Shown piece after piece: positions 11,781 through 39,713 of a stretch of DNA of 58,505 nucleotides; the stretch's first letter is position 1, and each line of letters opens with the position of its first letter. Under the pieces are notes generated by a model. That model worked only from the letters and a program-made list of their open reading frames with translations, was not told the origin of the DNA and ran no database searches. The position numbers and the translations under genes are program-made. This stretch comes from Ginglymostoma cirratum (lineage: Eukaryota). The DNA is taken from NCBI GenBank assembly GCA_024137785.1, contig JAHRHZ010000116.1, forward strand, positions 698,338 through 756,842. The letters are read 5' to 3'.

Positions 11781-14700
11781 AATCTGTGCAATTGCTTCGT
11801 TATCCTCATCTGTCTTGATGTACATACACGTGACAAAGTGACTGGTGGTCATATTTTGAGAGTATCATTCTCACTCTACAGTCGGAGATAGTTGTCAGGA
11901 GTTTTATTTGGAACAAACAAAGTAAAAGCCTTTGTGTCTTTTTTCATCAGTAGTTGTTCAAAGTGATGCAGTTTCAACCCCTGCTGGTGGCCTGGGTGTA
12001 TTGCAACTGTGAAAGTCAATACTGCTTNNNNNNNNNNNNNNNNNNNNNNNNNNNNNNNNNNNNNNNNNNNNNNNNNNNNNNNNNNNNNNNNNNNNNNNNN
12101 NNNNNNNNNNNNNNNNNNNNNNNNNNNNNNNNNNNNNNNNNNNNNNNNNNNNNNNNNNNNNNTGACAGTTTATCTTTCCACGTGCCTATTTCTCATGCTG
12201 GGTATCTTTCTGTGTCTCGTTCCATGCATTTGGCAGTCTGTCTCTCTGGTTTCCCCTTTTCCTATGTTTGTTAAATCTACTTTGTTTGCACCTTCAATTC
12301 ACTCTCTGTTGCACACAATGACATTGAATACGGCCTTGTAAAATCTCAGGTGTTCTTGTCTCTCAGGGAGTCTACATTCAGACCAGTATATTTAGGAATT
12401 GTTCCATTAAAGTTAGCACTATGAGCATGGTTGCAATTCAGAAATATTTCTCAGGATCCTCATTCGACGGCTGTGAGACGGTTCAACTGACAACTCCGTA
12501 GGTTTGGTCCAGAGAAAACAGGAAGTGACTTCTGACAAGTGTCGCACTGTCATTGAAGCCATCTGTAGAGCGTGTGATAATATATTGGTGTCCAAACTAG
12601 CGAGTCACCCAGTACTACGACACGAAGGCACTCTCTACACTGCAGAAACAGTTTAGGGTGATACTGTAATGACTATTCACCGGTATCTCTGATTTTTCTG
12701 TGGCCAACCAGGCTGGTTGCCAGAAGGACAGTGATAATAAGGCATTGTATTGGGAATACTTCCAAACGCAGAAGACCTGAGTTACAAAACTGACACACTT
12801 CAAATTACACAATGGAGAGGCAGAGAATAATTGAATTGATTAATTCGAAACCAGCATTTCATATGGCTTGGAAATTGGCGCACAAATTGACTGTCATGAT
12901 AATGTGAACATATAAAGAGGCTACAGGAGAAGGTCAGTTGGCCCTTAAAAGCGTCCTCCTCCATTGAATAAGATCGTGGCTGATACGATGTTAATCTCAA
13001 CTCTAGATCGCTGCATGTTCTTGAAAATCTTTCATTCCTTTGTTGTCAAGAATCTACTTACATCCTTCAAGATGCTGCATTCACTACCTTAACATAAAAG
13101 ACATTACAAAAATTCACAGCCGACTGAATTTTAAAAAGTGCCCACATTGCTGACATTAAAGGGTGCTGTCTAATTTTGTTTTTAACTCCGGCTCCGAATT
13201 CTTCATTTTCCCACAAGAGGAAGCATTCTTTCCACTTGCTTCTGATCAACTCTTCTCAGGGTCTATTTTGTTTCCATACATATGTTCTGAATATATGGTA
13301 CTACAGAGGAGATAGCTCCAGGCTAGTAACTTTTCTCACCCTGTATTACTCTTGATTGTGCTTACAGAACAGTACCTATGGCAAATAGTTTGATAGATTC
13401 AGTTTCCTCTGATGAAGAAATGCTTTATCGTATCTACCTGATTACCTATTCCACGCACACGGGGTGGGGGTAATGTCAGGTGGAGACATTTCTCCATGTA
13501 CTCCGTTAGGTTTGCATCATATAGCTTGATAGCATGCGGCAGTTGAATGTTGACCTCTTGACTCAAAGTTAAGGGTATTAACAGAATGTCACAAGAACCT
13601 TCCCCGCAGCTCACCTATATCCTCACTTACATTATTCTAATGCTGACAGACACAAAGCAAGGATGCTCACATCGATTTCTCAGGAATTCTCGAGTCAGTG
13701 AATAAAATTACGGAATTTTTTTGTTACCTTCATGATGTTCTGACAGGAATAGCTTCTCGCTTTATATTCCAGGGATGGGCGTGAATTCTAGAAATGTTAC
13801 TTGTTATAAGCAAGTTAAGAAAATAAGCAACTTTCCCATCAGTGAATAGACAGGTGGATCCTGTTATACAGTTCCGGAGCATTACACTGTGAGATCTGTC
13901 CATTGTGTACAAGCCGACGTTTATCCACAAACTCACACTGAGCAAACACACCCTCTTGACAAACTGTGGGCTCTGATTCCGGTAAATTGGCATGAGAGGA
14001 GGGAATCGACCTGTTCAGAATCACATTCGTCTGAACAAAGAAAGACACAGCACAAGTCGACCATGATAATATCAACAGTGAATTTATGAATATAAAGTGG
14101 GTATATGAATGGAGAGAAGCAAAGACTGCACGCTGTCCTTGTCCATGATTTGTTGCTGTTGTCGGTTTGAAAAGTGCACTGGACTGCTTCACTCCTTCTG
14201 ATTGAATCCCTGATCAGTTTCACAGTCATCTGTCCAATCGACCCATCTCCCAATACATAAGTCAGTTACTTCTGAAATGACATTAGACAAGTCATACAAA
14301 CCTGCAAGTGAACATTTCTAATTTTCTGTACAGGTTTCTAATCAGACACTGCAATATACAGAACAATGCACTGCAGCACATAAACACACATTGAAAAACA
14401 AATGCAAAGCCATCAAAATAACTAGGCACAAATAAAGATTGATAGAATTCTTTACACGCAGAGACCTATTTGCATTTATGAGAGAATGTATGTGGGAGAT
14501 CCAGGACATTTTCTTTCATTTAGACAGTAAGAGAAGATATAACAGTTGAGCTTCCTACACTGGCCAGTAGTGCAATGAAAAAAGTAGTTCCCCAATTTAT
14601 TTAAATGGTGTTGTGCAGTTAATACGACATGAAGACAAAAAAAGCATAAATATTGGTTGTCTTCAGCGTGAAGGCCATCATCCCAATTGCTTTTTAATTT

Positions 14701-14882
14701 CGATTCTCAGCCGTCAAATTCATATGATCTGTTCAATTTCCATTTGTAGATAACATTACTCGTGGTTTTGGAAAACATGCTTTCATTTTTGAGAGTTTGG
14801 AAGTAACGTAAGACAAAATGACAGCACCTTCTAAACCAACGGCCACGCCCACCAAGAAGGGCACCTGCAGAAGATGCATGTG

Positions 14883-15004
14883 GCTACTCTTCACCTGGAT
14901 CAACAACACAGAACTTTGACTGTTGGAGACATCGATACTGCTGAATGTCGCCCGCTTGATGATTAGCTCTCTGATGCAACTCAAAGTGCAACCGTACAGA
15001 AACT
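14883..15004 (+). pseudogene. 5'-truncated ghost V (FR3 plus RSS remnant)
   Basis: ATLHLDQQHRTLTVGDI; nonamer ACAGAAACT at 14996-15004. Confidence 0.65.
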
Positions 15005-16072
15005 CTAGGGAGACAGGAGACAGACAAACAGCTTCTCTACCTGACCATCAACAACATTACAGAGGAGAAACAATTGCTGACTGAAAGTGAATTTTGTGGA
15101 GCTCCCATGTTCAATGTGAAAATATTACAAAAATTATCACTGGTGAGGATGTAAAAGGTACCCAATTTCTAAGTAAAGTTTTCAGAGATGTTATTTGTCA
15201 CCTCTACAGCAAGTGAATCTAGACCTGAAATCTATTTAAACAGAGCTAGGTACTGTACCACTGCACATTGGTAGCTCCTCAGAATCAAAAGCGCAACTGA
15301 CCTGTGTTAATTTCATTCAGGATAAAAGAGAGTTATCAATGTTAATCGTATCTTCATCTTCATGGTCTAATGACAGGAGTGCTAAACACAAATAAACCAT
15401 TGGTTCTCCTCCTGATTATAGACAACAGGCCAAAGCGGGAAAAAGGTGTGTGAACACTCCTATTCAAAGACTAGATGAAAGAAAACACCCGGCATCACTT
15501 AGGCACGAGTTAATATAAACCTAGAGTACAGTATTGGATACGCAAAAAGCAACTGAAACAAAAAACACTTTTCAAATTGACATTAAATAAACTGTCATGG
15601 ATTTGACTTTCTTTCAGTTTCCATTATGGATCCTCCAGTCAAATTCAGGTTGAGTTCAGTAATACGGTGGGAACCGAACAGAAGGTGAGAATGAAGTTGA
15701 AGCTGAGACTAGCGAAAGTGAGAGACCAACAACAGGTTCTAAATATATCAGGACGGCGAAACTGATATAGAGCACTGTCGGATTAGATATAAACTTCACT
15801 GTTGTGCTGAACCTCCATGTATTCATACATACATTATCATCCAGCTATAAACACGAAAAGCACACACACACGTGCACTCACGCACGAATTCACACAGGCA
15901 CATTCATACACGCACAGAGAGAGAGAGAGAGAGTGAGAGAAAGAGAGAGCCTTGTCCCATTATGTTGTGTTCTCAGAACTTCCTAACTATCCTATGCTGT
16001 GACCTGCTGTTGATGATATGTGCTTAAGTTCTCTGAGTGAGCACTGAAGAGCATGTCACATTTCCTCTTGTG

Positions 16073-16623
16073 GGTTTTTGTACATTGTTGGATCTGCTCT
16101 GCCTCACTGTGCTCATTGCACAATAATATGATGCGTGATCTGAAAAACTCAATGGTCTGATATCCAAAGTGAACATATTGTTTGTAACATCTTTGTAAGC
16201 AGCAACTCGCTTTTCAAACTCTGGATTAAAATAATTGCTGGATTCAGTATAGTACCGAACTAGCCATTGTAGGCCATTCCCAGGACTTTGTCGGTACCAG
16301 TACATATGGTAGACACCGAGATCAAACCCGCTGGTTTTGCATGTCAGTCTCAGAGACTGTCCGACAATGCCTGTCTCTTCCTCCGGTTGAGTCAACAATA
16401 CTTCCAACTGGGCACCTAGTAAGGAAAAGCAACATTAATTAAATTGCAGGAATTGGATTCTTTTAACTCTCCCCTCCAATGCAACTAGCCCCCACCACAA
16501 GCGCCAGGAAAGAGATTTCCAGAGAAACTGAAAGCCACGTTAAAATTTAATTGAAAGAAGCAATTAGACCTACGCACTGGAGACAAAAGCAAGAAGGAGA
16601 GGGAGAAACTTTGGCGAACACAT
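16073..16623 (-). CDS. Intact IgH-like V segment (TAILV-like): leader 16578-16623, V exon 16112-16415, RSS 16073-16111
   Basis: Leader MCSPKFLPLLLAFVS, GTGCGT donor, AG acceptor; AQLEVLLTQPEEETGIVGQSLRLTCKTSGFDLGVYHMYWYRQSPGNGLQWLVRYYTESSNYFNPEFEKRVAAYKDVTNNMFTLDIRPLSFSDHASYYCAM resembles shark IgM VH frameworks; consensus RSS CACAGTG-23-ACAAAAACC. Confidence 0.92.
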
Positions 16624-19600
16624 GCTTCCAGGCTCTGTCTTAAATGAGACAGTCTGTTCTCCAGTCACTCGAAGAAAAAACAGCTCTGCCGACTGTTGGA
16701 TTCTGATCCACACTCGCAGGGTTTTATGTATCAGAAGCAGAAGGGGTGGGTTTGAGATCACAAGAGATTCGCTGACTGCGATTGACCTCTAATGTAAAGA
16801 CATGGGAATTGACGTCTGATATAAATACCTGGGGTGTTTACAATTCCCACCAGGCTGGCTATCAGTACCATCTCATTCCGGCTGTTGAAGATTCCATGAA
16901 TTGACAGTACGAGTCTGTTTTTTTTTACATTTCAAAAAAATATTTTATTCATAAAAACAACTTTATATGCGTAAACAGTCATTAAAGCAGTTTGGTCCCC
17001 AATGCAACACAAAAAGAAACAAACCAACATTGGATTCGGACTCTATCTCGCTCACAATCTCACGGCATTTCTAAATGGTTTCATGGTTTACTTGAATATA
17101 TTAGAAGCATAGCGAAATCCGATAAGTGAATGGGCCCCCATTTCCCTTCGGCAGAAAAATAATCATTTTTCCCACTCCCGTTTGCCGTAGGTCTGCCAAT
17201 TTGCTTTCCATGAGAAAATTACAACCCGAGAACCCTGATGTTGACTGTTGCCCACTGATGTCTTATATAGAAAATTTTCAAAAGCTTTCTGGAAATTCAA
17301 ATCTAACAAATACAGTGACTCAACATTATCTGTTCGACTAGTTAGATCCCTAATGTAAAGCCGCCAGTAAATTTGTTAAGCATGAATTTCCTGCTATATA
17401 CAGGTTATGTCAAATTCGAGTAAATTTTTACAAACATTTTGTTATCCCCTGACTTACCAGAGGCATATACTCGTTAGAAAGGGATTAGGGGTCACATGAA
17501 AATGGTTTAATTCAGCAGTAATTCATAGTGATATGACGTGAACTACCCAATAGGATGCTCGAGACTTTCCAACGTTCATTTGTCAAATTGTAGACAGATA
17601 GTTCGAGGAATCTAAATATTTTGAGTGTGTGCATTTAGGAGAGTAGGAGAGTACGATAAAGTGAATTACACACGTCAGGACCGCCACTGCAGCTGCAGCC
17701 CATTTGAACACATCTGGAGAGTTCCCATTCTGTTACTTGAAAATGCTCACGTTGTCAGAAGGTTCTGAAATTCTAAGGAATGATCAGAAATCAAACCTCG
17801 ATCTGTTACGTCCACCATGTTTATTACAACATCTTCACAGTTTTCAGTAAGTACACAGGATGGCAAATGCAAAAATAATGCGATCCAAATGAATTATGCA
17901 CAAGTTACAACAGGCAGTAAGGTAGAAACCAAACAGCATGGATACATACCTGCCACAACGTGCAAGTCAAATCCGCGTGTATAGCTGTATGAGTACATAA
18001 GTATTTGGTGTATGTGTGTGTGCGTGTGTGTGAGTGTGCGTGTGTGTGTGTGTGTGTTTGTGTCCTTGTCTGTGTCTCTGTCTTTGTATGATTATGTATG
18101 TTTTTCTGTATTTGTGAGTTAGTTTATCTCCGTGCATGCCTGATGGTGCAGCAAAATATATCATTCTCTGTTTGTGCATGATTCTCTCTCCACAATGGGC
18201 GACAGTTAACAGGAGTTTGATTTCAAATTAAAAAAGTAAAAGCCCCTGTACCTTTTTTCATCAGTTACTGTTTAAAGTGATGCAATTGCTCACCCTGCCG
18301 GCGGCCGGCATGTATTGCAACTGCGAAAAGGCAAAAATTACCAAGGAATCGTGCAAAAGGTTAGCAGCAGCACACAGTACCTTATCATCTGACAGCAACA
18401 CCAAAACGTACATTGGATCCGCATGGGGATTTCTGAGATCGACACTATGGAGAATAGAGAGCGGTTCATCATGGGGATTACAAAAATTGTCAATTTTAAC
18501 AGAAAATGCATAAATTCATGAAACAATATTGTCAAAGTATGCAGTCTTTTCAAACGGTTACGCATATGCTGTCTGTCATTCGAAGTGTCCTACTTTAATG
18601 TGTGAGCACAGCATTTATATAACGAACGGCTTTCCTGTCTGTCTATCTAAACTATCTCTCTCTCTATTATACAACCAACATGCTTGACAGTTTATCTTTC
18701 TACATACCTATTTATCACGCTGGGTATTTTCCTCTTCCTCCTTCCCTGCAGATTCCAGCCTGTCCTTTGGTTTTCCCCTCCTTCCATATATGTTCAATCA
18801 ACTATGTTTGCATCTTCAACTCACCCTCTGTTGCACACAATGATGTTGAACAGAGCCTTTTAAAATACTGGGTGCTCTTGTATCTCAGAGACTCTACGTT
18901 CAGACCCGTCCATATAAGTATTGTTCCATTATGTTCAGCACTATGAGCATAATTGCGATTCAGAAATATTTCTCAGAGTCCTCATCCAACGGCTGTGAGG
19001 CTGTTAAACTGACAAGTCTGTAGGCTTTGGCCAGGGAAAAAGGAAAATGACTTCGAACAAAATATGGCACTGTCAATAAAGCCATTCATACAGCGGATGT
19101 TAATATATTGGTATCCAAGGAACAGAGTCAGACAGTACCACAACAACAAGGCACTCTCTCCATCTGCGTAGAAACAGTTGAGAGTGTTACTCTCTCCACT
19201 ATTCCCGCTCATCGGTACCTCTGACATTTCAGTGAAAGATGAGAATGGATTCCAAACGGACACAGATAATAAGGCATTGTGTTTGGAAAACTTTCATCCG
19301 CAGAATAGTGGAGTAACAAAACTAACACTACTCACTTTATACAGAGGAGAGGCAGAGAATGATTGAACAGATTGTTTTGACACCATCATTTCATATGGCT
19401 GAAACGTTGATGCTCCAATTGATTGTTATGGTCATACCAACGTAGAGGAGGGTACAGGAGAACGTCAGTCGGCACTTAACAGCATCCTCCACCATTGAAT
19501 AAGGTCACTCCTGATATGATGTTAACCTCAACTCTAAATCATCGCTTATTCTTGAAAATCCTGCATCCCTTGGTTGTCAAGAACTTACTTACCTCTGCCT

Positions 19601-21489
19601 TTAAATATGCTTCAGGATTCAACATTCACGACCCTAACATTAAAGATATTCAAAAAAAAAACCTCACAGCCTACTGAATGTTAAAAAAAAAGCTCCGCAT
19701 TGCTGAGACTAATGGGTGCTGCGTAAATTCTAACCTCCAGCTCCTAATTCTTCACTGTTGCACAAGGGGAAACATTCTTTCCAGGTATTCTTGATCAACT
19801 CCTCTCAGGGTCTAATAAGATTCCATTCACTCGTTCTGAATCGTCGATACTCCAGACAATCCAGGCTGTGTATCTTTTCTATACCTGTATCAGTCTTGAA
19901 CATACTTAAAGCATTGTCCCTGTAGCAAATATCTTGACAAGTTCTGTTTCCTCTGTTGACGAAATGCTGCTTCGTATCGACATGATTATCTATTCCACAA
20001 CAACGGGATGGGGTTGGTGTTGGGTGGGGACTATTCCCCATTTACTCTGTCAGGTTTTCATAATACATCTTTACAGCATCTCGCGCTTGAAGTTGGGCAA
20101 CCTGATACAAAGGTAAGGATGCTACCATGATGTCATAAGATTCCTCCACACAGCTCGCTTATAAACTCGCATACATTATTCTAATGCTGACAAACACGAA
20201 GCATCTTTGCTACCTTTCATTTCTCAGGAAACTTCTCGTCATCGAACAATATAATACAATTTTGTGTTACATTCATATTGTTCTAACGGCAATACTTCCG
20301 TTCTTTATATGCCAGGGATGAATGTGAATTCCTGAACTGTCAATTGTGCTAAGCAAGTCAAGAAATTAAGCGACTATTCCAGCATTCGGGAAATAGATGG
20401 ATTCAGAATCATTACATTTTCAGATCAGTCCATTGTGTACATTCTGACATGCATCCGCAAATTCACACTAAGCAAACACACACTCTTGACAAATTGCGGG
20501 CCCTGATTCAGGCAACTTGACTTTGGGAGGAGGGAAAAGAACTGTTCAAAATGACGTGCATTCAAGCAAAGTTCAAAAGGATCATTACAATTACAAACAC
20601 GAATTCATGAATATCGGGTGGTTATGCGAATTGAGAAAAGCAAATACTGCACGCTGTCCCTGTGCATGAGTTGTCGGTTTGCAAGGTGCAGTGTGCTACA
20701 GCTCTCCCTCTGAGTGACCTCTTGATTAGATTCAGCTTCGTTTAGTGCAGTAACGTACAGAAGATTGTGGAATTCTATAGTGTTGAACTAAGGGTACGAA
20801 TCAGGCAAAGTGACTTGCAAATTTCGTTGATTACTTCATTCACTTTTATCTGTACAATTGATTCATCTCCAAAACCAACGGCCAATTGCTTTTGAACTGA
20901 CTTTAAACACAGGAGACAAACCTTCAGGTGAAATTTTCCAATCGTTTGTACAGGTTTCTAATCAGTCACTGAGATGGGCAGAAAAATATACAGCAGCACA
21001 TACACACACATTGACAAACAAACGCAAAGATCTCAAAACAATTCTGCACAACGAAAGAGTGACAGAGATACGCACAAGCATAGATATTATCATTTATTAA
21101 AGTATGCATGTGGGAGATCCAGCCCATTTTCTTTCGTTTCGTCTGTGGATGAAGGTATGACAACTGAATTTCCTACTCTGGCCGTTTGCACGTTACAAAG
21201 TGTAGACCCCTCTGTTTACTTCATTGGTGTTGTGCAGTTAAAATGACATGAATGTGGAGGTCGGATAAAAATTGGTTACCTTCATCCCAGGCGAATTTTA
21301 CTTCAAATTCTCAGCCGTAAACGCCACTTGATTTTTTTCAAATTTCCATGTTGAGAGAACATTATTAGAGGATCTGTAAAACATGCCTTCATTTTTCAGA
21401 GTTGGGAAGTTAACAAAGGACAAAATGACAGCACGTTTTGAACCAACGGGCACTTCCACCTCGAAGGACACCTGCAGTAAATGCATCTG

Positions 21490-21619
21490 CCCACTCTTCA
21501 CCTGGATCAATAACAGAAAATTTTCAATATTGCAGACATCAGAGGAGAGGATACTGCCGATTATCACTGCTTGCTAATCAGCACCATGTTACAACTCAAA
21601 GGGCAACAGTACAGATACT
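21490..21619 (+). pseudogene. 5'-truncated ghost V (FR3 plus RSS)
   Basis: PTLHLDQ*QKIFNIADIRGEDTADYHCLLI; CACCATG-22-ACAGATACT. Confidence 0.72.
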
Positions 21620-21771
21620 CCAAGCAGACAGGGGCAAGAACAACAGCTACTCTATCTGACCATCAACAAGATTACAGAGAAGAAACAATCGGTGACTGAA
21701 AGTGAATTTTGTAGAGAATCCCTATTCAATGTTTAAATATTACGTGAATTGTCACCAGTGAGATTTAAAAG

Positions 21772-22046
21772 CTCCCACCGTGGGTAGCGCCAGGGTCCCA
21801 GGTTCATTTCCACGGCCTGGCCACTGTCTGTATGGAGTTTGCACATTCTCCACGTGTCTGCGTGGGTTTCCTCCAGGTGTTTCGGTTTCCTCCCACAGTC
21901 TAAAGTTGTGCAGGCGAGGTGGACTCGCCATGATAAATTTCCCGTAGTGTTCAGGGTGTTGGATCTTAGGTGGGTTTTTGGGGGATGGGTTGGTGTGGAC
22001 TTGGTAGGCTGAAGTGCCTGTTTCCAAATTGTAAGGATCCTGTGAT
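21772..22046 (+). mobile_element. tRNA-derived V-SINE (HE1-like), 5' degraded
   Basis: V-core GGAGTTTGCACATTCTCCACGTGTCTGCGTGGGTTTCCTCC; same cassette site as the copy at 9114. Confidence 0.85.
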
Positions 22047-23073
22047 GAAGGATATCCATTTCCTCAGCAACGTGTTCAGAGATATTATTAGACACCTCAG
22101 CAGCAAGTGAATCTAGAACTGGAATCTGTTTCAAACAGACACAAGGATTGTACCACTGCACTTTGGTAGCTCCTCCGAATCTAAACTGTTAGTTCCATTC
22201 GCATAATGAGAACAACCATTGTTCACCGCACGATCGTCTTCATGTCCTATTGACAGGACTGCAAAGCCAAAATAAAGAGTCGCTCTGCTCCTAATTATGC
22301 AACAAATGTGCAAAGCAGGAAGTGAAATGGGAGCAATCCTAGTCAAAAGACAGTCAAAAGCAAAGACCAGAGATCAGTCAGACACCAATTAATGTAAACC
22401 TAGAGTAGAGTGTTGCAATCAGTAACGAAAGTTATCATGTGAAACATTAGCTCAAAAGAACTCTCTTGAAATTGACATTAAGTACACTGTCATGTAATTG
22501 ATTTTTATTGTTTCCATCATGGACACTACAATTAATTTGAGATTAGGGTCAGTAATACAGTGTGAACTGAACAGGTGGTCAGAATGAAGGAGAAACTGAG
22601 ACGAGAGAAAGATAGAGAACAACAAAGGGGGCTAAATATTTTAGGACGGCGAGACTGATATACAGTAATGAGGGATTGGATATAAATTTAACTGTTTTGC
22701 TGAACCTCAAAGAACTCATACATACATTATCATACACCTTTATACAGACACACAAAAAAATGCTCACACTCGCATACATTCACACGTGCACACTCATACA
22801 CACACAAACCTACAAACAGCCAACTGTCATTTTGTGATATAAGCAGATAAGCACGCACACACACATTCACTCACACACACACACACACACGTGCGCGCGC
22901 ACACACCCACACACACCCACACAGAAACACACGCACGCAAACAAAGCCTCGTTAGTTGTTGTGTTATTTAATAAATAGTATTCAGTAATAACACCATTCT
23001 GTGAGCTGCTATTCATGATGTGTGCATTGGTGCTATCAGTGAGCACCAAAGAAAATGCTACATTTCCTCTTGT

Positions 23074-23666
23074 GGGTTTTGTACAGGTTTGGATCTTATC
23101 TGTATCATTGTGCTCTTGCACAATAATATGTTGCGCTATCTGAAATCCTCAAAGGTCTGATATCCAAAGTGAACATATTGTTTGTAAGGTCTTTGGAAGC
23201 AGTAAATCGATTTTCAAACTCTGAATTAAAATATTTGTTATCTTCAGTATAGAACCGAACTATCCATTGCGGACCATTCTCAGGAGTTTGTCTGTACCAG
23301 TACATCAAGTCAGAGCTCAGATCAAACCCACTCGTTTTACATGTCAGTCTCAGAGACTGTCCGGCAATGCCCGTCTCTTCTTTCAGTTGAGACAATAATA
23401 CTTCTGACTGGGCACCTAGTAAAGCAAAGCAACATTAATTAAACTGCATGAATCGGGGTCTTGAAACTTTCCTCTCCCCTGCCACCACCAACCCTCATGC
23501 CATCGCCCCCCCCCCCACACCACTCACCCCCACCCCACTTCGCACTCCCAAGAAAAATACTGTGAGAGAAATGAAAACCACGTCAAAATTTAGTTGAAAG
23601 AAGCAATTATAACTAAGCACTGGAGACGAAAGCAAGAAAGACAGGAAGAAACCTTGGCGGCCACAT
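23074..23666 (-). CDS. Probably intact IgH-like V segment (TAILV-like): leader 23621-23666, V exon 23113-23415, RSS 23074-23112
   Basis: Leader MWPPRFLPVFLAFVS with weak donor GTGCTT; EVLLSQLKEETGIAGQSLRLTCKTSGFDLSSDLMYWYRQTPENGPQWIVRFYTEDNKYFNSEFENRFTASKDLTNNMFTLDIRPLRISDSATYYCAR; RSS CACAATG-23-ACAAAACCC. Confidence 0.88.
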
Positions 23667-26059
23667 GCTTCCTGACACTGTCTTCAATGAAACAGTCTGC
23701 TCTCCTGTCACTCACTGAAAAAGCAGATCTGCAGACTGTTGGCCTCTTATCCACATCCACAGGGTTTTAAGAATCAGATGAAGAGGGGGTGGGTGTGAGA
23801 ACATTAGAGATTGGCTGTCTGCCATTGACGTCTGATGTAAATACATGGGGTTTCACTTCTGATATAAATACATGGGGAGTTGGCCATAGTCACCGCGCTG
23901 GCGAGCAGCACTATCTCGTTGCGGATTTTGGCGAATGTGTGAATTGGCAGTCGCTGACTGATTTTTTTTTACATTTCAAAAATATAATTTATTCATAAAA
24001 ACAACAATATGTGCGTAAACAGTCTTTAGCGCATTTCCGTCCAATACATAGCATATGAAGAAACAAGCAAACATTGGATTCAGACCCAATCTGGTAAATA
24101 ATCTCAAGCCATTTCCGAATGATTTCAGGGTTTACTTAAATATATTAGACGCATAACGAGAATCCAACAAGTGAAACGATCCCCATTTACCTTCGGCAGA
24201 AAAAGACTCTTTTTTTCTCACTTTCGTTTCCAATAGGTCTACCGATTAGCCTTCCATGACAAAATTACATTTCTAGAGCATTGGGGTTGACTGTTACCCA
24301 CTGACGTTTCATGCAGAAACTTTCCAAAAGCTTTCTGAAAATTCAAATACAGTGACTTAATGTTACCTGTTCTACCAGTTAGATCTCTAAAATTAAACCT
24401 CCAGTAAATTTCAAAAGCATGATATTCCTGCCAAAAAATAGTTATGTCCAATTCCATTAAATCTTTACAAACGTTTTGTTTTCCCTATCTTTCGAGAGGT
24501 ATGTAAACGTTACAAGGGGGTTGGGGATCACTTGCAGATAGTTTAATTCAGCAGCAGTTCAAAGTGATATGGAACGAATTGCCTGATTGGATGCTGCAGA
24601 CTTTCCAACGATCTTTCGTCAAATTGTAGACAAATAGTTCCAGGAATTAAAATATTTGAGAGTGTACTTACGAGACATTAGGGGAAAACAATTGGCTGAA
24701 TCATGCGTGTCAGGAGTGGCAATGCAGCTGGGGCCCAACTGATCACATATGAAGGGCTTCCATTCTGTTCCTTGAATTTACTGACGATGTGGGAAGTTTC
24801 TGGGATTGTAACAACAGAACAGAAAACAAATCTTCGATCTATTACATCCACCATGTCTGTGTCAACAGCTTCAGAGTTTGCAGCAAATACACAGAATTTA
24901 AAATGCAAAGAAACTGCAAAACACATGAACGGAACAATCGTTGCAAGAGACAACAAACAGCATGTTTACATACCTACCAATATGTGTATGTGTAGGTGGT
25001 GTATAATGCTTCCTGGGTACATGAATATTCTGTCATATGTATGTATGTGTGTGAGCGTGTGTGTGAGCGTATGCGTGTGTTGGCATTTTCGTGCAGAACT
25101 TTCCAGACCTCGTCAGGACCAAATGTCATGTGGAAACAGGCTGATTTGGAAACCTGTGTGGGAACAAAGAAAAGCGATTGACTAAATTTTACTGAACTCC
25201 ACATTGCTTATTTAGAGACGCACATAATGCAGTTTCTGTCCCTGTATGTGCTGATGCTGTTGTCGTTTTGAAAGTTGCTGTGTTCTGCTGCTCTCCCGCT
25301 GATCGAATCCTTGGTTAGTCTCACCTTCCTCTTGTGCAGTTATGGATGGAAGAGAGTGGAACTGCATAGTGTTGAACTGAAGGGAGTGAATCAGAGAAAG
25401 AGACCTGGAGATTTTTTGCATTAGTTCGTATACAATCATCACTGCAATAGCTTAATCTGACAAAACAAGTGCCAGCTGCCACCTGCGGGTGAAAGTTTCT
25501 GTTCTTTTGTACATTTCCAAAGTGACACTGAGATCAATAGAACAATACATAGCAGAACGTACACAACCATCGAAAAACAAATGCAAAACTTCAACACAAC
25601 TATGCACAAGTGAAGGCTGATAGAGATCCACACACCCATAAACGGTAGCATTTACACGAGAATGCACATCAGCAATCTAGGCCTTTGTTTTTAGGTTCGT
25701 GTGTCGGTAGAGGTATGACAACTAACCTTCCTGCTATGATTGGTTGCAAATTATAGAAAGTAGATTCCCTGTTTATTTCAGTGTTGTTGCGCTGTCAAGA
25801 GATAATGAAGATGGTGGTGCGATTAACATTGACTTTCTTCAACCTAAATGCCATAAACTGAATTGAGCTACACTTCAGATTCTCATCTCAAAACATCATG
25901 TGATCTTCACAAATTTCCTATTTGGATCTGCATTTTTACTGGATTTGTAAAAGGTGCCTTAATTTTTGAAATTTGGAAGATAATCAAAAGAAAAATATGA
26001 CACCACCTTCCAAACTAACATCCACTCCATCTCGAAAGATACCTGCAGTGGATACGTGG

Positions 26060-27534: not shown

Positions 27535-27690
27535 CAATCTGTCTATTCCTCCATCTATCTTTCTTTCTGTCTGTCTATCTACCTATCTGTCTCTCTGTCT
27601 TTCTATCTGTCTATCTATATATCTATCTATCTATCTATCTGTCTGTCTATCTATCTATCTATCTATCTATTTATCGATCTATCTATCCTT
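27535..27690. repeat. (CTAT/CTGT)n tetranucleotide microsatellite
   Basis: Direct inspection. Confidence 0.9.
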
Positions 27691-28635
27691 ATAGCTATCA
27701 AAATTTCCAGTTTAATATAGAAAGACAGCTGAAGAGCCCTTGAATCTGACTTTGACTCTGTTTACAACGATCAGAATCAATCTATTGTGAGATCTATCGA
27801 TTGTGTAAGAGAAAGCATGCTTCCTCGAAGTCAATCTGAGCAAACATACCTTCTTGAAAAACAAAACATGGACAATGATTCTGGTAAATTGACGTGGGGT
27901 AGTGGAAAGGGGTTTTCAGAATAACTGTAATCCTCACAAAGCGAAGCAAAGTACAAAGGAGATTTTAAAATATAAACAATGAATTTATGAATTTCAGTTG
28001 ATTTTGCAACTTGAGATAAGAAAAGACTCTACACTGCTACTTTGTGTGAGTTGTTGATGTTTTCGGTTTGAATGGTGTCATTCCTTGCTGCTCTTTCCCG
28101 AACTGAATCCATGGTCAGTTTCACTTTTCCCTTGTGCAGTAAAGGACATCCACCAGAACAGGGTAGAACTGCATTGCGTTGAACTGAAGGGCGGGAAACA
28201 GGGATAAACACTGTGAGAAACAAAAACAGAAATGGCTGGAATTTCTCAGCAGGTCTGCCAGAATCTGTGGACAGAAATCAGAGATAAAGTTTCAGCTTGA
28301 ATGACCCTTCCTGAGAACTAACTTCTCTCCACAGACATTTGCACAAAGTGAATATTCATAACCTGAAACTGAAACATGGCGGGATAATGCGAAGGGTATA
28401 AGTGCCTTTTTTTTTTAAACTACCAGGCAGACAAGCAAGGATTGTGAAGAGAACAGACTGAACAAAAAATAGATTGGGAAGAAAAAGGATGTGTGAATAC
28501 TTACTACGGTAAGCCCATTGGAATGAACGTTCAGTTTCCCTAACGGGAATTCCAATGTGTTTCCAGGGAGCCAGAAGTATGCTCCCTTATCTCCTATCAT
28601 CATTCCTCACATGGGGACGTAATTCTGTATTACAG

Positions 28636-28945
28636 AAATGCAGGCCAAAGTACGGATCACACAGTCGCCTGTTGCATTAGTAGCTGTGGAAGGCCCCTTG
28701 GTGGCAAAGATCTGCAGTACCAGGACATTGCTCAGCTTTGCAAAGTGGTACAGGTAGCATGGTGGAGGGGAGACAAATCTTCTGATCACCGCCTCTATCT
28801 GCGTAGAGGATTTGGGACACTCTTCACCAGAACAGAAACGTAACACATTCATCATCAGAAACATCAGGAGGAAGGATACTCTGATTTACCACTGCCTGGT
28901 GATCATCACCATGTAACAACTCAAAGGGCAAACAGTATAGATACT
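28636..28945 (+). pseudogene. 'Ghost' TRAV-like V exon with RSS
   Basis: ITQSPVALVAVEGPLVAKICSTRTLLSFAKWYR*...IRNIRRKDTLIYHCLVI; CACCATG(28907)-23-ATAGATACT(28937). Confidence 0.8.
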
Positions 28946-29833
28946 CCAGGCAGACAGGAGTCAGACTGACAGCTTTGCGATCTGAGCATCAACAATCTTA
29001 CGGAGCAGCAACAATCAGTGACTGAAAATGAATTATGTGAAACTACCTTGTTCAATGTGGTAATATTGTGTGATTCGACATTGGTGAGAATCTAAAGCGC
29101 GTCCATTTTCGAAGCAAAGTGCTCTTAGATGTTATTAGACACATCTATAGGAGGTGACACGAGAACTGCAATCAATTGGAATCCGAGGGACGGACTCTAC
29201 CACTGACATCAGTAGATCCTCAGCGACACACAACAGCTACTGATCTGTAATTCATCCAGTTGTTTTCCAAACAGGAGCATGAGGATAATCAATGCTAATC
29301 GTACCTCCATCTTCATGTCCTGTTCGCAGGAGTGCAACTTCGAAACAGAAAAAGATTCTGCTCTTTAAAGTGTACTACAGGCCTACGAAGGAAATGGAGC
29401 ACGGTGCACTTGCATTAATACATGAACTGAAACCAAAGAACCGAGATCACTTTTTCAACACTTAATTTAAACATACAGGATAGTAGCATACTCAGTAACG
29501 CGAGTTATTATATGGAAAAAGCTGCTGAAAAATCTCTTTAAAGTGAGATTTTAAAAATCGTCCTGTAACTGTTTTTCGTTCCATTACAGAGTCTCCAATC
29601 AAATTGAGATAGAATTCAGTAATATACAGGGAAACAAAAAGAAGTACAAATGAAGCTGAAACTCAGATGAATGACAGTGTGACGCCAACAGAGGGGGCTG
29701 AAGATACCAGGAAAGCGAGATTCATATAAAGTACACAGCGAGTAGAACTGAAAAATTAACTGTTATACTGACTCTCCACATAGCATACGTTATCTCTCTC
29801 TTTCTCACTCACTCACAAACATAGACACACACA

Positions 29834-29884
<51 letters not shown>

Positions 29885-30229
29885 GAAGAGAGAGCGGGAG
29901 GAATAGAGAGCTTGGTGCCATGTTGTGTTCTGACCAGGTAAACACAATTCTACGTGATCACATCGCTGATGAAAGGATAAATTCAGCATCCCCTCAATAC
30001 ACTCGAATCAGCATTTTCAGTGACACCAATTTTAAAAGCCCGGCCGTGATGAACTGATGCTGTGTTTCCAGATGCTCCCATTTCATTCCTTCATTGTCAG
30101 GGCGACATGTCTGCGAGCTCAGAACCTGCACTTTCTTTTCTCAGCAGATACAAGAAACACTTGGTTGGCAGTTTAATGCTATATGAGAACGGTTTTCTCA
30201 ACAAATACAAGAGTCTATGGTCTAAAGGC

Positions 30230-30715
30230 AGTTTTTGCACAGGGTAAAGACTGTTTATCATGACTTCGTGCCCAAGCACGCAGAAATAGACAGCAGTGTC
30301 AGAAGGATCCCGGTGATTGTCAAACTGGTGAATTTCTTCGAGATCTGAAGTTCTATCGAGAAGTGACTTTTAGCAAAATCGGCTTTATTCTCATTATCAG
30401 TAGTAGTTTTCCTCAGTATATATTCAGGATTGGTGCCTGGATGTTGTGAGTACCAATATGACCTGTAGGAGCTCAATGTTGTATCATAGGTACAATTTAG
30501 AGTCACCGCCTCGCCTTATGGATGAACATCTGAGGAAACTGAGTGAATAACAAAATTTCCATGACTCAGGTCTGAACGGAAAACGAAATGTTAATTTCAA
30601 ATTATTACCTCGCATCAATTTAAAATATTATTGTTAAAGGAATGTGAATTGGAGTTCCTCCAAATAGACCTATTAGCATTGATACCCACACACCCCAAAT
30701 GTTGAGTAGCCACAT
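30230..30715 (-). pseudogene. TCR alpha/delta V pseudogene: leader 30670-30715, V exon ~30269-30571
   Basis: Leader MWLLNIWGVWVSMLI; TAA stop in FR1; TLNCTYDTTLSSYRSYWYSQHPG...KKFTSLTITG; FR3 frameshift; heptamer destroyed; nonamer GCAAAAACT. Confidence 0.88.
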
Positions 30716-32721
30716 TATCTCGACTTTCGGCGTAAAACAGATGACGAATATTTGAGGAAACCCACTCGATAAACATGCCCTTCGTAAACTGCTGACGTGT
30801 CACTACAGGTTTCCACCTCACTTCCTTGTGGACGCGCTGGTACACTGAGGGCAGGAGGAAGACAGCAGCCTTTCAGTGAATTGACACATCTCGAGATGGG
30901 TTGCACTCACTGTACTTAAAATAGAGAGGTGAGAATTTTGACAGATTGACTTCCATCCTTAACAAGTAATTCCCCAGATTCACTGTACAATTTACTCTCA
31001 AGGCTCTGTTTCTTTTTTCCTGTCCCACATCCCAACTTGACGCGAGTTGTTGATCTTAGCCAATTTATAGCTGCACCTAAATTTGCAACACCGTCATTCC
31101 TGATGTTCGCAGCCTAAGCACAATCCTGGCAGATCCGCAAACACTCCACTCTCAAACTAACTCACGTTCGATATCACTGGACTCAATGTCAGCGTTAACT
31201 CAACAGTATCTCTCCTAACACTTTTCCCAAATCCTCGATTATCCTCCTTATCTGATGCTGCATCGCGGCCTTCAGGCTGAAGATTATTACTTTCTCCCTC
31301 TGTTAGTCCGGCTCAGCATTCCTCGCTGAGCTCAAGTTTCACTTTCCTTCCTCCCACCTGTCGGTGTTTTTCTGACTTACTGAACGCAGAGTCCTCATAG
31401 AACAGGATTCACTGTACTTATCATTGTTATATTCCGGATCTCCCATTCCAGCAGGCTCTGTCTGTCTGTGTGTGTGTGCGTGCCCGCGCACTTGTTCGTA
31501 TGTGTGTGCATCCACTCGAGCGAGCATGCACGTGTGTCTCTTTGTTCAATGCAAGATTTTTTTTGGTCTTTGATGTTATTTGAAATGTTGAAATTGCTCT
31601 TCAATTTGCGTTTAAAGTGAGACAGCGTCACCCTCTGCTGGTGCTGTGAAGCTACTTCACTTGCGCAAAGTGAAAATCGTCACAGAATCAGTCAGAAAAT
31701 CAGGAGCAAACAGCAGCTTTTAACCAGCAGATACATCAACACACACACATGCAAGAAAATTATAGGGATTAAAGTCGGCCACTGTGAAGATTCCAGCGGG
31801 TTCTGTGTGGCAATTAGACAGAGAGTCAGTGTGGAGAGCACATATAACCTCATCGTGTGAATTATATTTGTACAGAGGCAGCTAATGAATACCACTCAGG
31901 ACCTTAAATGTTTCAGTTCAATCATGTCTGTCTCTTGTAAACGCCAGATAGAAGCCAAAGATATCTAGTGTTACTACCTGTGTCTTTCACTTGAATATAA
32001 TTAGCACCCAGGCTCTTTAATAATTTATACAAAAGATTATTTCCCTCTCAGAGAAGAAATACTTCCTCATCTCTTTCTTGGATGTTTTACTCTTTATTCT
32101 GAGATTGCTTCTACTTGCCTTCTTCCCCATGAACTTTCCATCACGTATCTTTGCAACAATAAGACTTGAAGGTCTGCTCCAGGAATCAAAGTTAAAGAGA
32201 CACTAAAACAACATGACAAGAACCCTCCACATCACTCGCTTATATTCTGACAGTATTCTGATGCTAATAAACACAAAGCATTCCTCTTTACACTTTAGAA
32301 TTTAGGAGTGGAAATGAATGTCGGGTCTGTTAATTGCAACGAACAAACCAAGAAATTAAGCAAGCTTTCCAGCATTCGGATAACAGCTGAAGTAAAACCT
32401 GCCATTGAGCGGAATCGGACTTTGTGTTTGCTTTTCGGATCAGCCTCGTTACATTTTCAAAATCTGTCCCATGTGTACAAAACATTCCTGATTCAGAGCC
32501 TCACACTGAGTAATTACTATTTTACCTAACAGTGCGTTGTTTACGCTGGGGAACTGATGTGGACGATGTGGAAGGCATTGTTCTGAATGACACATGGGTG
32601 AACGAAGGAAAGCAAAGGACACAGGAAACATTACAAAACGGTCAGTGAATTTGTGATTGTCAGCTGGACATATGAGCTGAGCGGAGTAAAGGCTGCACAC
32701 TGTCCATGTCTTAGATTTGTT

Positions 32722-32938: not shown

Positions 32939-33131
32939 AGATTTGTTGATGCTTTCAGTTTGAATGGTGTTGTTTGCTGTTGTGATCCCACTGCTTGGTT
33001 TGCCATTGCTCTTGCGCAGTAACAGACATTCACAGACATTTCTATACTCATAGGCAAATTCAGAAATTCACACAAACACACATACATGCACAAACAGTTA
33101 GAAGTGTGCTGTGTTGTGCTCTCAACAGATA

Positions 33132-33785
33132 ATTTTATTATTATTATTTTATTCTCATGTGTACGGAACTAATGTGAAAAGCTTTGTTTACGAGCTGTAA
33201 AAACAGATCGTAGTAAGCAAATGGTGTACAGATCAAAAATAGGTAGACAGAGCATACCAATTTTATGTGACAGGATGCGCACGATGCAAGAGCCAGATGA
33301 GCAAGACCAGCATTAGTTGAGTCCAGACAGTTCATTTATCCGTCTTATAAAGGCCAGAAAGAAGTTATTCCTGAAGCTGATCAACCTCTGCCTGATTGAA
33401 GAGATTCTAGGCAATCATTACAGGATTTCAATCAGTCTTTGATAATGATGGTAGCCTTTGTGCAGCAGACACCAGGTAAATGGATTCCATGATGGAAGCT
33501 TGGCTTCCATGCTTGTCTGGGCTGTGCACACCGCTTTCTGTAGTTTCTTACGGTCTTGGGAAAATCTTTTGCAATTCCAGGCTGTCAAGCACCAGAGCGG
33601 TCTACTTTTAATGATGCATCTGCATTGGTGACATACTTCCTGGGCTTGGAAAATTTAAATCGAGTCGCTGGAGGAAGAAGAGGTGTTGTTGTGCCTTCTT
33701 GACAGTTGTATCTCTATGGAATGTCGAGGACAGGTATTGGCTGTCGTCACTCCAAGTGACTTGATCTCTTCACCCTCTCAACGTT
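33132..33785 (-). mobile_element. Rex1/Babar-type fragment, paralog of 4081-4738
   Basis: Reverse complement of 4081-4738 at the same insertion site. Confidence 0.8.
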
Positions 33786-34220
33786 AGTTCTATGTGATGA
33801 CATCGATGTTGGGAGTGTTGATGCACTATTCCCTCAATAAAATCAAATCATCCACTCTGAAAGCCCGCCATGAATAAATTGTAATCGTGTCTCTTAATAC
33901 TCCCTGGCATGTGTGGAACTTATGTGAATCTTGTAAATGCACAGCTCTGTCCAAACTCACTATGTGCAGATAAAGACGACAGAAAATTGTTGTTAGTGGA
34001 GATTTGAAAGGTAGTTTTCAAATATGACTTTGTTCTGGTTTTTGTGAGCACTCGGACACTTTAGTTTATATTCTCATCTGCTCCCTGAAACAGTTGGGTG
34101 ACAGTTTGAATCGTGGTTAATTTAGATTCCTATCGGTGCGATTTTAAATTTCTAACAGTATATTACAATAACACTAAATTTACCCAAACTCCCATAGAGA
34201 GACCATCTATGATTCACAGA

Positions 34221-34708
34221 AGTTTTTGTACAGCGGTGAGACTGTTTCTCTTCACTGTGTCATTCCTGAATGCGCAGTAGTACACGGCAGCGTCAGTCAG
34301 CTGCAGCCCAGTTATAGTCAAACTTGTGAATTTCTTCGAGGTCTGAAGTTCCATAGAGAAACGATCTTGTGCAAAATTTGCTTTATCATTAGAACCACCA
34401 GTATCTTTGAGCATAATAAAGTCAGGACGTGTGTCTGGTTGCTGTCGGTACCAGAAGAGTGTATAGTAGCTCACTGTAGCTTCATAGGTACAACTTAGAG
34501 TAACCACGTCTCCTTCTGTCCGAACTTCTGAGGAGAATAACTGAGTGACAGAATCTCCATAACTCAGATCTGAAATGAAAAGCATAAATCAATTGGAAAC
34601 TGTCGAGCTGGGGTCAGTTTCACCTATGCCTTGATGAAGAAATGTGGAATGTTCACACTTACCTGTTAGAATTGCTACCCACAGAACCGAGATGCAGAGA
34701 AGTCGCAT
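34221..34708 (-). CDS. Intact TCR alpha/delta V segment: leader 34663-34708, V exon 34260-34569, RSS 34221-34259
   Basis: Leader MRLLCISVLWVAILT with GTAAGT donor; DLSYGDSVTQLFSSEVRTEGDVVTLSCTYEATVSYYTLFWYRQQPDTRPDFIMLKDTGGSNDKANFAQDRFSMELQTSKKFTSLTITGLQLTDAAVYYCAFRN; RSS CACAGTG-23-ACAAAAACT. Confidence 0.95.
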
Positions 34709-36431
34709 TGTCGCTGTCCTGTGTGAAATATGGCACTCGGATATTTGAAGACATCGATTCTATAACCCCGCCCGCGGTTAAAAATTGTCGTGTCACTCGA
34801 CGTTCCCACTTCACTGCCTTGTGTGGGCGGTGATGCTATTGGGGCGAGAAGAAGACAGTAGACTGTGAAAGAATTGACACATCCCCAGTTGATTACAGTC
34901 ACTGCGCTTAAATTGGAGCATCAAAAACTCTGAAAGATTAACTTACTTCCATGATAAGAAATCCCCAAATATCACTTAAGCGTTTACCCTGAAGACTCCT
35001 TTTTCCTTTTCACTGATCAAATCTCCAGTTGAAGCCAATTTTTCTTTTTAACCAGTTTGTGGGAATGCGGGTACACAGTTGACGCCAACCCTGTGATTTC
35101 AACCATAACTGCGTCCTCTCAAATTATATCCCTCAAATTCCACATTCTACATTAAAGTAGCCAAACTCAGCCTTATCCAGCGTTATCTCCATTATGATTT
35201 TCACTAAGTTCTCCTTTATTCTGCTCGTCTATTGCTCTTTCTCTGTTCTCAGGCTCAAGATTATCACTCTCACTCTCTGTTAGTCCCTCTCAGCTTTCTT
35301 TTATGAGCTTACTCTTACCTTCCTTCATCCCTTCTGTGTGTTCTTTCTGACTCGCTGAAAGCAGAGGACTTGTATGGCAGGAATCACTGTATGATTGAAA
35401 AATTTTGCAGTCCCAATCTTCAGTTCGAGCAGTAAATGAGAACGCGCACATTTGTGTACGCACGTGTGCTTCTGTGCATGAAGGTTCACCTCTCTGTGTG
35501 ATAGGATCTATTTGTCAGTGCTTTCACAAAGTCAATGACTTTCTGCGTTGCATTTCAACTTGCTTTGAAGTGGCACTGCGCCATCCTTAGTTGTCGGCCT
35601 GAATTTGCTACAATCGCACGGAGAAAATAGCCAGTAAATCAGTCGGATAACAGCAGTAACAGACATCAAATCCAATCTGACAGCAGCGTCAGCACACATA
35701 TATAGACAAGGAAGGGTAGATCAGGCTCATTGCATTGTGAGATCTGTACAATGTGTACAAACCATCCCTGATACAGAAACTCACATTGATAAGTGTACTC
35801 TCTTCACAAACTGTCGATTGTTAATACAGGAAACTGAGATAACAGATGTGGAAACGATTTTTCAGAATGAAAGGAAATGAACAAAGACAATGAAAGGACA
35901 AAAGAAATATGAGAATATCGCCAGCGAATTTATGAATGTCAGCTGGATATTCAAGTACTGTCAACATAACATAAAATTAGTTTGCTTTATTCCTTTGCTG
36001 ACGGAGGCAGCGAAATGAGTGTGAGTAAGCATGCCTTGTGTTTATCAATATCAGAATATCGTCAGTATGTGAGCTAGCTGCATGGGGGAACTTGTAACGA
36101 TATAGCAGTGTCCCTCTTTAGAGTAGAGAGGCACATCTTCAAGACACACGTGCTCAAGAGGTGTGCAATGCAACGTCGACTGGGTAGACACGGAAAAGTC
36201 GTTTCACCCTATGAGATATTCGAGGAGGGACAGGCAAAATTGCAGAATAAGGAGTGAAGAATTTAGGACAGAAATGAGTAGACATTTCTTCTCTCAAAGG
36301 GAACAGAATCTAGTATAATTTATCAAACAATCTAAATGATCATATGTTTATATCTGATATCGACATGGAAAGACCATGTACCGGGCTTGTATCATCTGGA
36401 GGTTTCAAGAATCAGTTTTGTGAACAATAGA

Positions 36432-36582
36432 GGAGAGTGCCTGAGTTACAGAATCTCCATGATTCAGAACTAAAAGGTAAAACATACATCAGTTGATAAG
36501 TGTCAGACTGGGCTCAGTTTAAACTACGATTTGGTAAAGGAATTTGTAATGCATTTCCTCCACATTTACCTGTTAAGTTGTT
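36432..36582 (-). pseudogene. Fragment of main-family V (leader 3' end, intron, start of V exon HGDSVTQ)
   Basis: GAGTTACAGAATCTCCATGA and intron sequence match 58010-58140; truncated at both ends. Confidence 0.75.
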
Positions 36583-36594
36583 CCACAAGCACCC

Positions 36595-36686
36595 CATCAG
36601 CATCATAAAGAGGGTGCAAAGGCCATCTACTTCTGCACTGATATCATCATCGTGATACAACACAGTAAACAGCCTGTACAGAAACC
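36595..36686 (+). pseudogene. 3' remnant of ghost V with RSS
   Basis: AIYFCTDI followed by CATCGTG-23-ACAGAAACC; downstream flank matches other ghost copies (GACAGGAGCTATAC). Confidence 0.7.
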
Positions 36687-38574: not shown

Positions 38575-39713
38575 ATGAAAATGGAGGTGCAATTAACATT
38601 GATTTTCCTCAGGCTGAATGCAATCATTCCAGGTGAGTAATAATTTAGATTCCTAGAAGTAACTGTCAAGTGATCTTTTCACATTCGCAGTTCCAGCCAA
38701 AATTATTTCTGCATTTGTATAATTTACTATTTATTATTGAGCGTTGCGAGGTAAGAAAAGGAAACGAAATTGGAATTATCTTCCAATACAATACTCATCT
38801 CCATCTGGAAGGACAAGTGGAGTAGATAAATTGGAACACCGTTATAGGAAAGCTCTTCTCCAAGTCAATCAACATTCCCACTTGGAAATATATTACACTT
38901 CCTTCTGTGTAACTGGGTCAGCATTCTATCTTCCCCTCCTCAAAAGATTCCTGTGTCTCCCTCTACGCCAACTGATACAGCCGTTTGGAAAGGCAGTTCA
39001 CCACCACCTCCTTCAATGGAATTAGGGACGGTCTACAAACACTTTGCCAGCTAGCGACATCGACATCACGTCGGGGCAAAGAAACACCCAATAGCTAATA
39101 ATATCTTTCGGTAACGAAGAGAGACATTTTCTCAAAGTGAATGGTGAGAGTCTGATAATCTAACACGTGGTGTAAGAACGTGAACGGTGTAAATGTCATT
39201 TTTCCATTGCAGTTACACAATAGCAGGGATGGGAAGAAAATAATTTTCTTCCTTAAAAAATGCTTGACAGGCCACTGTATGTGTGAATATACACCAACAT
39301 ATGCTCATTGCACTGAACAGACAATTTTCCCACTGGACAATGCAACGTGTTTCCAGGGAGCTAGTTGCTTGCACGCTTATCTTCTCTCAGCATTTCTCCG
39401 ATTATATTTCATTCCATGTTACAGTGTTCCTGGTCAAAGAGTGTATCACACAGTCTCCGCTGGCAAGAGTGGTTGTGGAAGGCTCCTCTGTGACAGTGAA
39501 TTGCTGAGACAGCACCTTGTTGACCTTTGAGAAGTGGCATTGGTGGCGTGGCAGACGATAGTTGCTGTTTCTGATCACCGCCTCTGGCAGTAGGGTCGGA
39601 GCATGAAGCATTCCGGCCACAATTCACCGGGAACAAAGATACAGAGCTTTAACGATCAGAGACATCGGGAAAAAAGATGTTGCTTCCAATTCTGTGCTGT
39701 GATCATCACCGTA
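38575..39713 (+). pseudogene. 'Ghost' TRAV-like V pseudogene, most complete copy: leader 38575-38632, V exon 39425-39706, heptamer remnant 39707-39713
   Basis: Intact phase-1 leader MKMEVQLTLIFLRLNAIIP with GTGAGT donor; TTACAG acceptor; FLVKECITQSPLARVVVEGSSVTVNC*DSTLLTFEKWHWWRGRR*LLFLITASGS...ATIHREQRYRALTIRDIGKKDVA../CAVI. Confidence 0.82.

Follow-up and report, generated by a model that had tools for sequence, protein, structure and literature searches.

An Ig-like V gene occupies the V position of a TCR V duplication unit in a shark TCR alpha/delta V array and is bounded by two seams, an upstream (5') one at a (CA)n tract that most of its gene family shares and a downstream (3') one that is confined to three copies. 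The Ig-like Vs form one branch of the V-gene tree, none of the IgH loci compared has a flank matching theirs, and one of the three copies, gene B, is joined in frame to a TCR delta J. We lean towards a two-step history as the explanation, in which an early join at a (CA)n tract on the 5' side was inherited across the family and the 3' side of one copy was fused to TCR flank later, an order of events that we infer.

The analyzed stretch (the window) is the final 58.5 kb of contig C116. Its minus strand carries about 10 TCR V genes or pseudogenes, together with three Ig-like Vs (A, B, and C), and Ig-like Vs are interspersed among TCR Vs both here and at 500-698 kb of C116; sharks are the source of the protein matches. 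In the 4.36 Gb assembly that was searched, contig C115 holds J delta and C delta, adjoined by further copies of the TCR unit of the window. Judged by these neighbors, the Ig-like Vs of C116 appear to lie among the TCR V segments of the alpha/delta locus. Readable C115 DNA begins with part of a TCR V (L037:2479-2649, i.e., C115:2572479-2572649) that shares 86% identity with the last V of the window, and the end of C116 may be positioned near it. IgM-type clusters and TCR delta/alpha constant genes occur together on C115 (L021, L024, L025, L026, L034, L040-L044), an arrangement of sharks that is also described in parts of PMC12227049. Younger inverted and direct duplications of 78-88% identity are also found (371-4931 vs. 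32939-39363; 4956-5885 vs. 41020-41955; 27610-29503 vs. C116:690747-692637), and contig C282 carries TCR-type Vs followed by tandemly repeated 23-RSS units (L029:5872-5994, L031:5851-5972). The Ig-like genes of the window and their remnants are as follows.

16112 to 16623, minus strand: Ig-like V gene B, with leader exon at 16578-16623, an intron, and V exon at 16112-16415; intact and expressed.
16073 to 16111, minus strand: canonical 23-spacer RSS of gene B, with 0 mismatches to the heptamer/nonamer consensus.
22945 to 25046, minus strand: Ig-like gene C, with junction at about 22986, RSS at 23074-23112, an open V exon, promoter, and upstream block.
10290 to 12016, minus strand: Ig-like gene A, with V at 10454-10750, second Cys lost, heptamer altered, and upstream block partly deleted.
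6823 to 7494, minus strand: remnant of a fourth Ig-like unit, consisting of upstream blocks without a V.
6330 to 6659: TCR V pseudogene without leader, adjoining the fourth-unit remnant in a reverse-type join.

A V-set domain is found in gene B, and gene A is likely a pseudogene. The three genes are 73-76% identical to one another and all have the same 3' seam. At 6659-6823, the opposite join is seen, in which Ig-like upstream DNA is placed on a TCR V.

The first-pass annotation had put the Ig-like V in the V position of a TCR duplication unit and held that the two were amplified together. Both points are supported. Collinear blocks are common to Ig-like and TCR units on both sides of the V. 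The period is 7001 bases for the Ig-like unit (RSS 16111 to 23112) and 6403 bases for the TCR unit (RSS 51325 to 57728). Along the plus strand, the TCR unit consists of a leader-like block, a decayed V, a flank, a (CA)n tract, 330-700 bases of V 3' flank, the V, its promoter, about 600 bases, a (TG)n tract, and the upstream block, a layout taken from profiles built on separate copy sets. The gene B unit matches the TCR unit outside the Ig-like DNA, which spans from about 30 bases right of the first tract to the second tract.

13758 to 15829, no strand assigned: TCR-unit DNA downstream of gene B, with leader-like block at 13758-14231, decayed V ending at about 14935, and flank at 14977-15829.
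15830 to 15944, no strand assigned: (CA)n/(GA)n tract by the 3' junction.
18232 to 19929, minus strand: TCR-unit upstream block in two parts, 18232-18506 and 19794-19929 (TCR-only profile E 3e-21).
18507 to 19794: 1.3 kb insert with a decayed V, splitting the upstream block of gene B.
27700 to 32041, minus strand: neighboring TCR V unit, with a V pseudogene at about 30260-30554; the nearest relative of the flank in the Ig-like units.
51898 to 58314, minus strand: TCR unit used as reference, flanked by the Vs at 51.3 and 57.7 kb.

The same split of the upstream block is present at two Ig-like copies outside the window. In two analyses, the flank downstream of gene B clusters with the adjacent TCR units at 26-29 kb (support 100 and 71/89). 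Genome searches with 14980-15830 gave 15 matches, 13 on the TCR contigs C116 and C115 and two short ones elsewhere, and all 12 matches of 53860-54720 fell on C116 and C115; these counts are lower bounds, as common words were skipped in the search. The shared flanks are thus restricted to the locus, and the objection that they might be genome-wide interspersed repeats, against which the first-pass annotation had cautioned, fails.

Other parts of the proposed cassette fared less well. The ghost V is present but decayed, and in Ig-like units only its 3' end scores. An orphan leader had been placed after it, but the TCR leader/promoter profile has no match in either candidate block; a leader-like block is found before the ghost V, not after it. 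The leader-like block is partly an inverted copy of the upstream block (14152-14226, 25231-25336, 28029-28182, 44345-44514, 54351-54470), and the unit therefore carries an internal inverted duplication. Same-strand partial copies of the V promoter occur in TCR V 3' flanks a few hundred bases past the RSS (30022-30104, 57326-57405, 50920-50985, 48391-48455, 45127-45195, 33848-33917, 5910-5999, 3937-4012).

On the 3' side, homology to the TCR flank had been read through 15945-16015 (compared with 29905-29972), with a break 55 bases past the nonamer. The whole block does beat shuffles (z 9.5, 0 of 2000), but the signal is confined to 15945-15978: this part scores z 8.8 against 29905-29936, whereas 15979-16015 scores z 1.4 (p 0.12). 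The stretch 15979-16030 matches the Ig-like gene at C116:586604, outside the window (z 5.6), and none of eight TCR flanks (z at most 0.2), and a profile of nine outside Ig-like flanks alone extends to 15997 in gene B and 22987 in gene C. When a profile of each kind is fitted, the break in gene B is best at 15978 (15973-15978 lie within 3 bits), 16.6 bits over 16017; that of gene C is at 22986 and that of gene A is best at 10386, where it is poorly fixed. The remainder of the claimed block is therefore flank of the Ig-like family, which runs through the proposed break, and the switch is placed near 15978, about 95 bases past the nonamer, rather than at 55.

15979 to 16072, minus strand: 3' flank common to the outside Ig-like family; it includes the GATGA previously counted as TCR homology.
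15945 to 15978, no strand assigned: short tip of TCR V 3' flank, ending at the best-fit 3' junction at about 15978 (z 8.8; 17.8 bits).

Against a clean break, 22987-23035 of gene C resembles three of the eight TCR flanks (z 3.5-4.9), and the two-profile scan gives the same result for shared descent as for late fusion.

The wider family bears on the age of this seam. Between 500 and 698 kb of C116 lie 10 further Ig-like Vs and one fragment, and another truncated copy is at 282 kb; at least 14 Ig-like copies or remnants with V sequence are thus present on one contig. In a tree of 13 Ig-like copies and the eight best IgM-type cluster Vs, with two IgW-type Vs as outgroup, the 13 Ig-like Vs of C116 form a single clade (support 100/100) that is sister to the eight IgM-type Vs; the IgM and IgW labels of these reference Vs rest on characteristic motifs and nearby D segments. 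The stem between the Ig-like family and the IgM Vs is long (0.2 changes per site), and the Ig-like Vs share 50-55% amino-acid identity with IgM-cluster Vs and about 30% with TCR Vs; exon identity to IgM Vs is only 55-65%. Genes A, B, and C form a clade of their own (100/100), which in the best tree is nested in the family with the 517 kb copy (91/90). This grouping is lost once upstream DNA is added, and the alternative tree, in which A/B/C is sister to the rest, passes the AU test (p-AU 0.25, or 0.38 when the 517 kb copy is left out). Among gene models of other sharks, which are protein models without flanks, one from bamboo shark groups within A/B/C (97), with a TCR V of the window's family directly upstream, and one from catshark falls inside the Ig-like family (99) and is joined to TCR delta J and C. 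No 12-RSS D was found near any Ig-like copy, as opposed to four IgM-type loci in which a D lies about 400 bases on. At C116:650562-650802 (L016:562-802), an Ig-like V is directly followed by an inverted duplicate of its own RSS and 3' flank.

The 3' seam at +95 is present in three of the 13 Ig-like copies (A, B, and C), whereas the other 10, including the nearest one at 517 kb (E 9e-29), have a separate 3' flank of their own beyond this point. The longer flank of these 10 suggests that the 3' seam is probably a secondary fusion. As the footprint of entry proposed earlier, the seam does exist, but its restriction to three copies makes a later origin more likely. At 640-672 kb of C116, Ig-like and TCR Vs alternate in one orientation, and from such an array a deletion or unequal crossover can make the 3' join. 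In the two-step model, the Ig-like Vs would be old residents of the shark TCR alpha/delta locus. The first event would have been the early join at the upstream (CA)n tract, passed on through the family. In the second, a deletion or unequal crossover would have fused the 3' flank of one copy, about 95 bases past its nonamer, to the distal flank of a neighboring TCR V, presumably removing an intervening TCR V, and the product would then have been amplified in tandem to three or four copies. No source of the distal 3' flank of the outside copies was found, and a further 420 kb of C116 gave no match to it.

One founding swap, the strongest competing account, is possible but on balance doubtful. 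An IgM-type V with about 1.3-1.6 kb of upstream DNA would have replaced a TCR V, from the (CA)n tract to about 5 bases past the nonamer; A/B/C would keep the original layout and the other copies would have gained a different distal flank later. The evidence turns on a short motif beside the nonamer.

16053 to 16067, minus strand: 15-base motif like distal TCR V 3' flank, at +6 to +20 from the nonamer; an alternative position of the 3' seam.

With at most two mismatches, the motif occurs at five sites in 257 kb, namely four TCR flanks and one site after the gene A nonamer. Its profile score in A/B/C exceeds all 254 null windows. The 15-base match at +6 to +20 is followed by weaker collinear likeness through +90 (whole-flank z 3.3, 1 of 100 shuffles), and 60 columns of the A/B/C consensus can be aligned with the distal TCR flank at 70% identity. 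However, this alignment requires a 25-base insertion, and the motif was picked by eye ahead of the statistical test. Taken by themselves, the outside copies fail to align with the distal TCR flank (z 0.0), and their motif copies are weaker, with 17 of 254 nulls scoring as high. Over +5 to +95, the A/B/C consensus is 73.5% identical to the outside copies without a long gap, compared with 70% to the TCR flank with the 25-base gap. The motif may be a chance likeness that favored crossover or a trace of an older seam by the nonamer; on either reading, there is no break at +55. A root with A/B/C basal, which a founding swap would call for, is compatible with the tree test, but A/B/C is nested in the best tree. 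The consensus identity of the shared blocks to TCR units is alike on the two sides (78.6% upstream, 80.0% downstream), in keeping with one swap; used as a clock, block identity does not separate the two seams in age. That the A/B/C units keep, intact at both ends, a single germline exchange of an IgM-type V for a TCR delta V predating the split of catsharks and carpet sharks is something we rate as rather unlikely. If it were true, they would be a physical footprint of the entry of an antibody V into a TCR locus, by slot replacement and not by RAG transposition.

The seam on the 5' side, which was absent from the first-pass annotation, is the better candidate for an entry footprint.

17990 to 18100, no strand assigned: (CA)n tract (coding strand), the 5' junction shared by most of the family.
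16624 to 18021, minus strand: promoter and upstream block of the Ig-like family, with pieces of genome-wide repeats at about 16916-17157 and 17241-17401.

On the far side of this tract, homology of Ig-like and TCR units is continuous up to the CA-rich tract. On the promoter side, TCR pairs score z 21-54 and Ig-like pairs mostly z 2-50, whereas cross pairs score z -2 to 7. A profile of the TCR-only upstream block is matched at the same place and strand upstream of the Ig-like copies at 586, 619, 650, and 678 kb and of genes A and B, and upstream of none of the eight IgM-type Vs. In total, the TCR block lies directly upstream of seven of 11 Ig-like upstream blocks (one weakly, E 0.015), and other DNA is found at the remaining four. 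By this pattern, the 5' seam is older than most of the spread of the Ig-like family. It may mark the point of entry from an IgH cluster or an early rearrangement within the locus, and the long stem to IgM would leave room for earlier in-locus history. A causal role of the tracts is only suggestive, because their density in this locus (0.115 per kb) is raised about 10-fold and, by eye, no tract lies at the block ends near 6659, 8597, and 11854.

An improbable reading of the same seam is that no footprint of entry is left. The upstream block would then be a module spread by duplication and inversion, added to Ig-like Vs and to TCR Vs on separate occasions when the Ig-like V had long been resident. 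The many copies of the block that are partial or inverted fit this reading, as does the long stem (0.2 changes per site) that separates the family from IgM Vs; moreover, the non-coding DNA aligns to TCR units and not to IgM clusters, and the 5' seam thus looks younger than the split from IgM. Yet in Ig-like and TCR Vs alike the block borders on the same (CA)n tract and has one orientation, which one join fits better, and an unsampled or lost IgH donor would also explain the absent match. A tree of the upstream block is too weak to place the Ig-like copies.

The search for an IgH donor gave no match. Neither the upstream-block profile nor the 3'-flank profile of the Ig-like family matched any of 10 IgH loci (the eight best IgM-type and two IgW-type), and these flank comparisons give no support to an IgM or IgW cluster as the donor suggested earlier. 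The Ig-like promoter has no cross-match to IgH loci, where only leader and intron match, weakly (best E 7e-11); an IgM spacer profile has no match in Ig-like flanks, and genome DNA searches for the donor flank returned only copies in the locus and repeats. As 150 of 157 candidates were scored in the protein search, a donor cluster may have escaped sampling, and sequence divergence could hide a donor. The proposal that an IgH V was captured together with its promoter gives way to a resident parent, as the Ig side of the junction derives from the Ig-like V family of the same locus.

Gene B is not an IgM/IgW cluster V, having no IgM-type promoter or V-D spacer and no 12-RSS D nearby. Nothing supports an exchange between tracts with an extant IgM cluster, as none of eight has such a tract within 2.6 kb upstream. 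RAG coding and signal joints form at RSSs in V(D)J chemistry; both seams lie outside the RSS and are not such joints, and RAG transposition was ruled out by this reasoning.

Taken literally, the first-pass proposal was direct capture of an IgH-cluster V with a break 55 bases past the nonamer, founding the three copies. The slot geometry and the excess of the full 71-base block over shuffles agree with it, but family homology passes through that point, 10 closer relatives are in the same locus, and IgM Vs are only 55-65% identical with no flank match, making it very improbable. An explanation of the shared flanks by dispersed repeats or by faulty assembly is scarcely credible: the Ig-like upstream block does contain pieces of repeats, and among the contigs examined the 3' seam was spanned by no read or contig, but the flanks are confined to the locus and three copies, 73-76% identical, carry the same seam.

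Gene B is present in spliced public contigs from two runs, in one of which there are 0 differences in 414 nt. In a contig of 1375 nt, its leader is spliced to the V across a GT-AG intron; past the V come 16 junction bases and then 14 of 14 bases of the J upstream of C delta. The V-J join is in frame by a hand count in this one contig of one study, read as far as J. Gene B rearranges to a TCR delta J in this contig, the constant part being assigned from the position of the J; no D delta segments were found in the readable stretch of C115. In function, it serves TCR delta as a regular V segment with a 23-RSS. Both seams are evolutionary scars, for which no function is predicted. An unrearranged public contig (run X2, record 8; 16058-16288) has 13 differences and a flank like that of gene C, and may represent an extra paralog or an allele missing from the assembly.

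Set against its description, the Ig-like family seems to fit the published TAILV family: it has an IgH-like V domain, lies among TCR Vs, forms a lineage apart from IgM/IgW cluster Vs, has no D-J-C cluster of its own, and is joined to TCR delta J. No protein named TAILV was among the protein matches, and a near-length protein search gave no match at E 1e-25. TAILV is not known to be expressed together with IgH constant regions. Both the genes themselves and the notion of VH translocation are already in print; the analysis adds the corrected, probably secondary 3' seam and the mapped 5' seam that most of the family shares. In the literature searched, no account of these junctions was found, which does not by itself establish their absence from print. 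As slowly evolving shark DNA keeps a seam inherited by most of the family, the entry question is testable across a few genomes. A primary 5' seam would show how large the transferred segment was and would favor recombination into a V unit already in place. With a secondary one, the locus would still clearly exemplify birth and death of V genes through block shuffling.

From sharks to monotremes, TCR delta loci are known to contain Ig V genes, for which an origin by translocation out of IgH has been proposed, as outlined in portions of PMC12227049 and PMC3457774; further background is given in sections of PMC5931798 and PMC3964593. Like TAILV, as characterized in parts of PMC12227049, the present family is an IgH-like V lineage that lies within the TCR alpha/delta V array and is joined to TCR delta J; beyond that description, at least 14 copies or remnants are on one contig and the junctions with the TCR V unit are mapped. 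The VH-delta genes of frog, birds, and platypus belong to separate tetrapod lineages, for which the relevant passages of Parra et al. 2012 (PMC3457774) give no breakpoint or mechanism, whereas the shark locus keeps alignable seams. Somatic trans-rearrangement of an IgM/IgW V to TCR delta D-J in sharks (portions of PMC12227049 and PMC3457774) yields a product of the same kind, a TCR delta chain bearing an Ig V, but joins across loci in lymphocytes, whereas the V described here is a germline resident. NAR-TCR (parts of PMC12227049 and PMC3457774) likewise places an Ig-related V in the shark TCR delta locus; its V is NAR-type and rearranges doubly with a supporting V, whereas gene B is IgM-type and joined straight to delta J.
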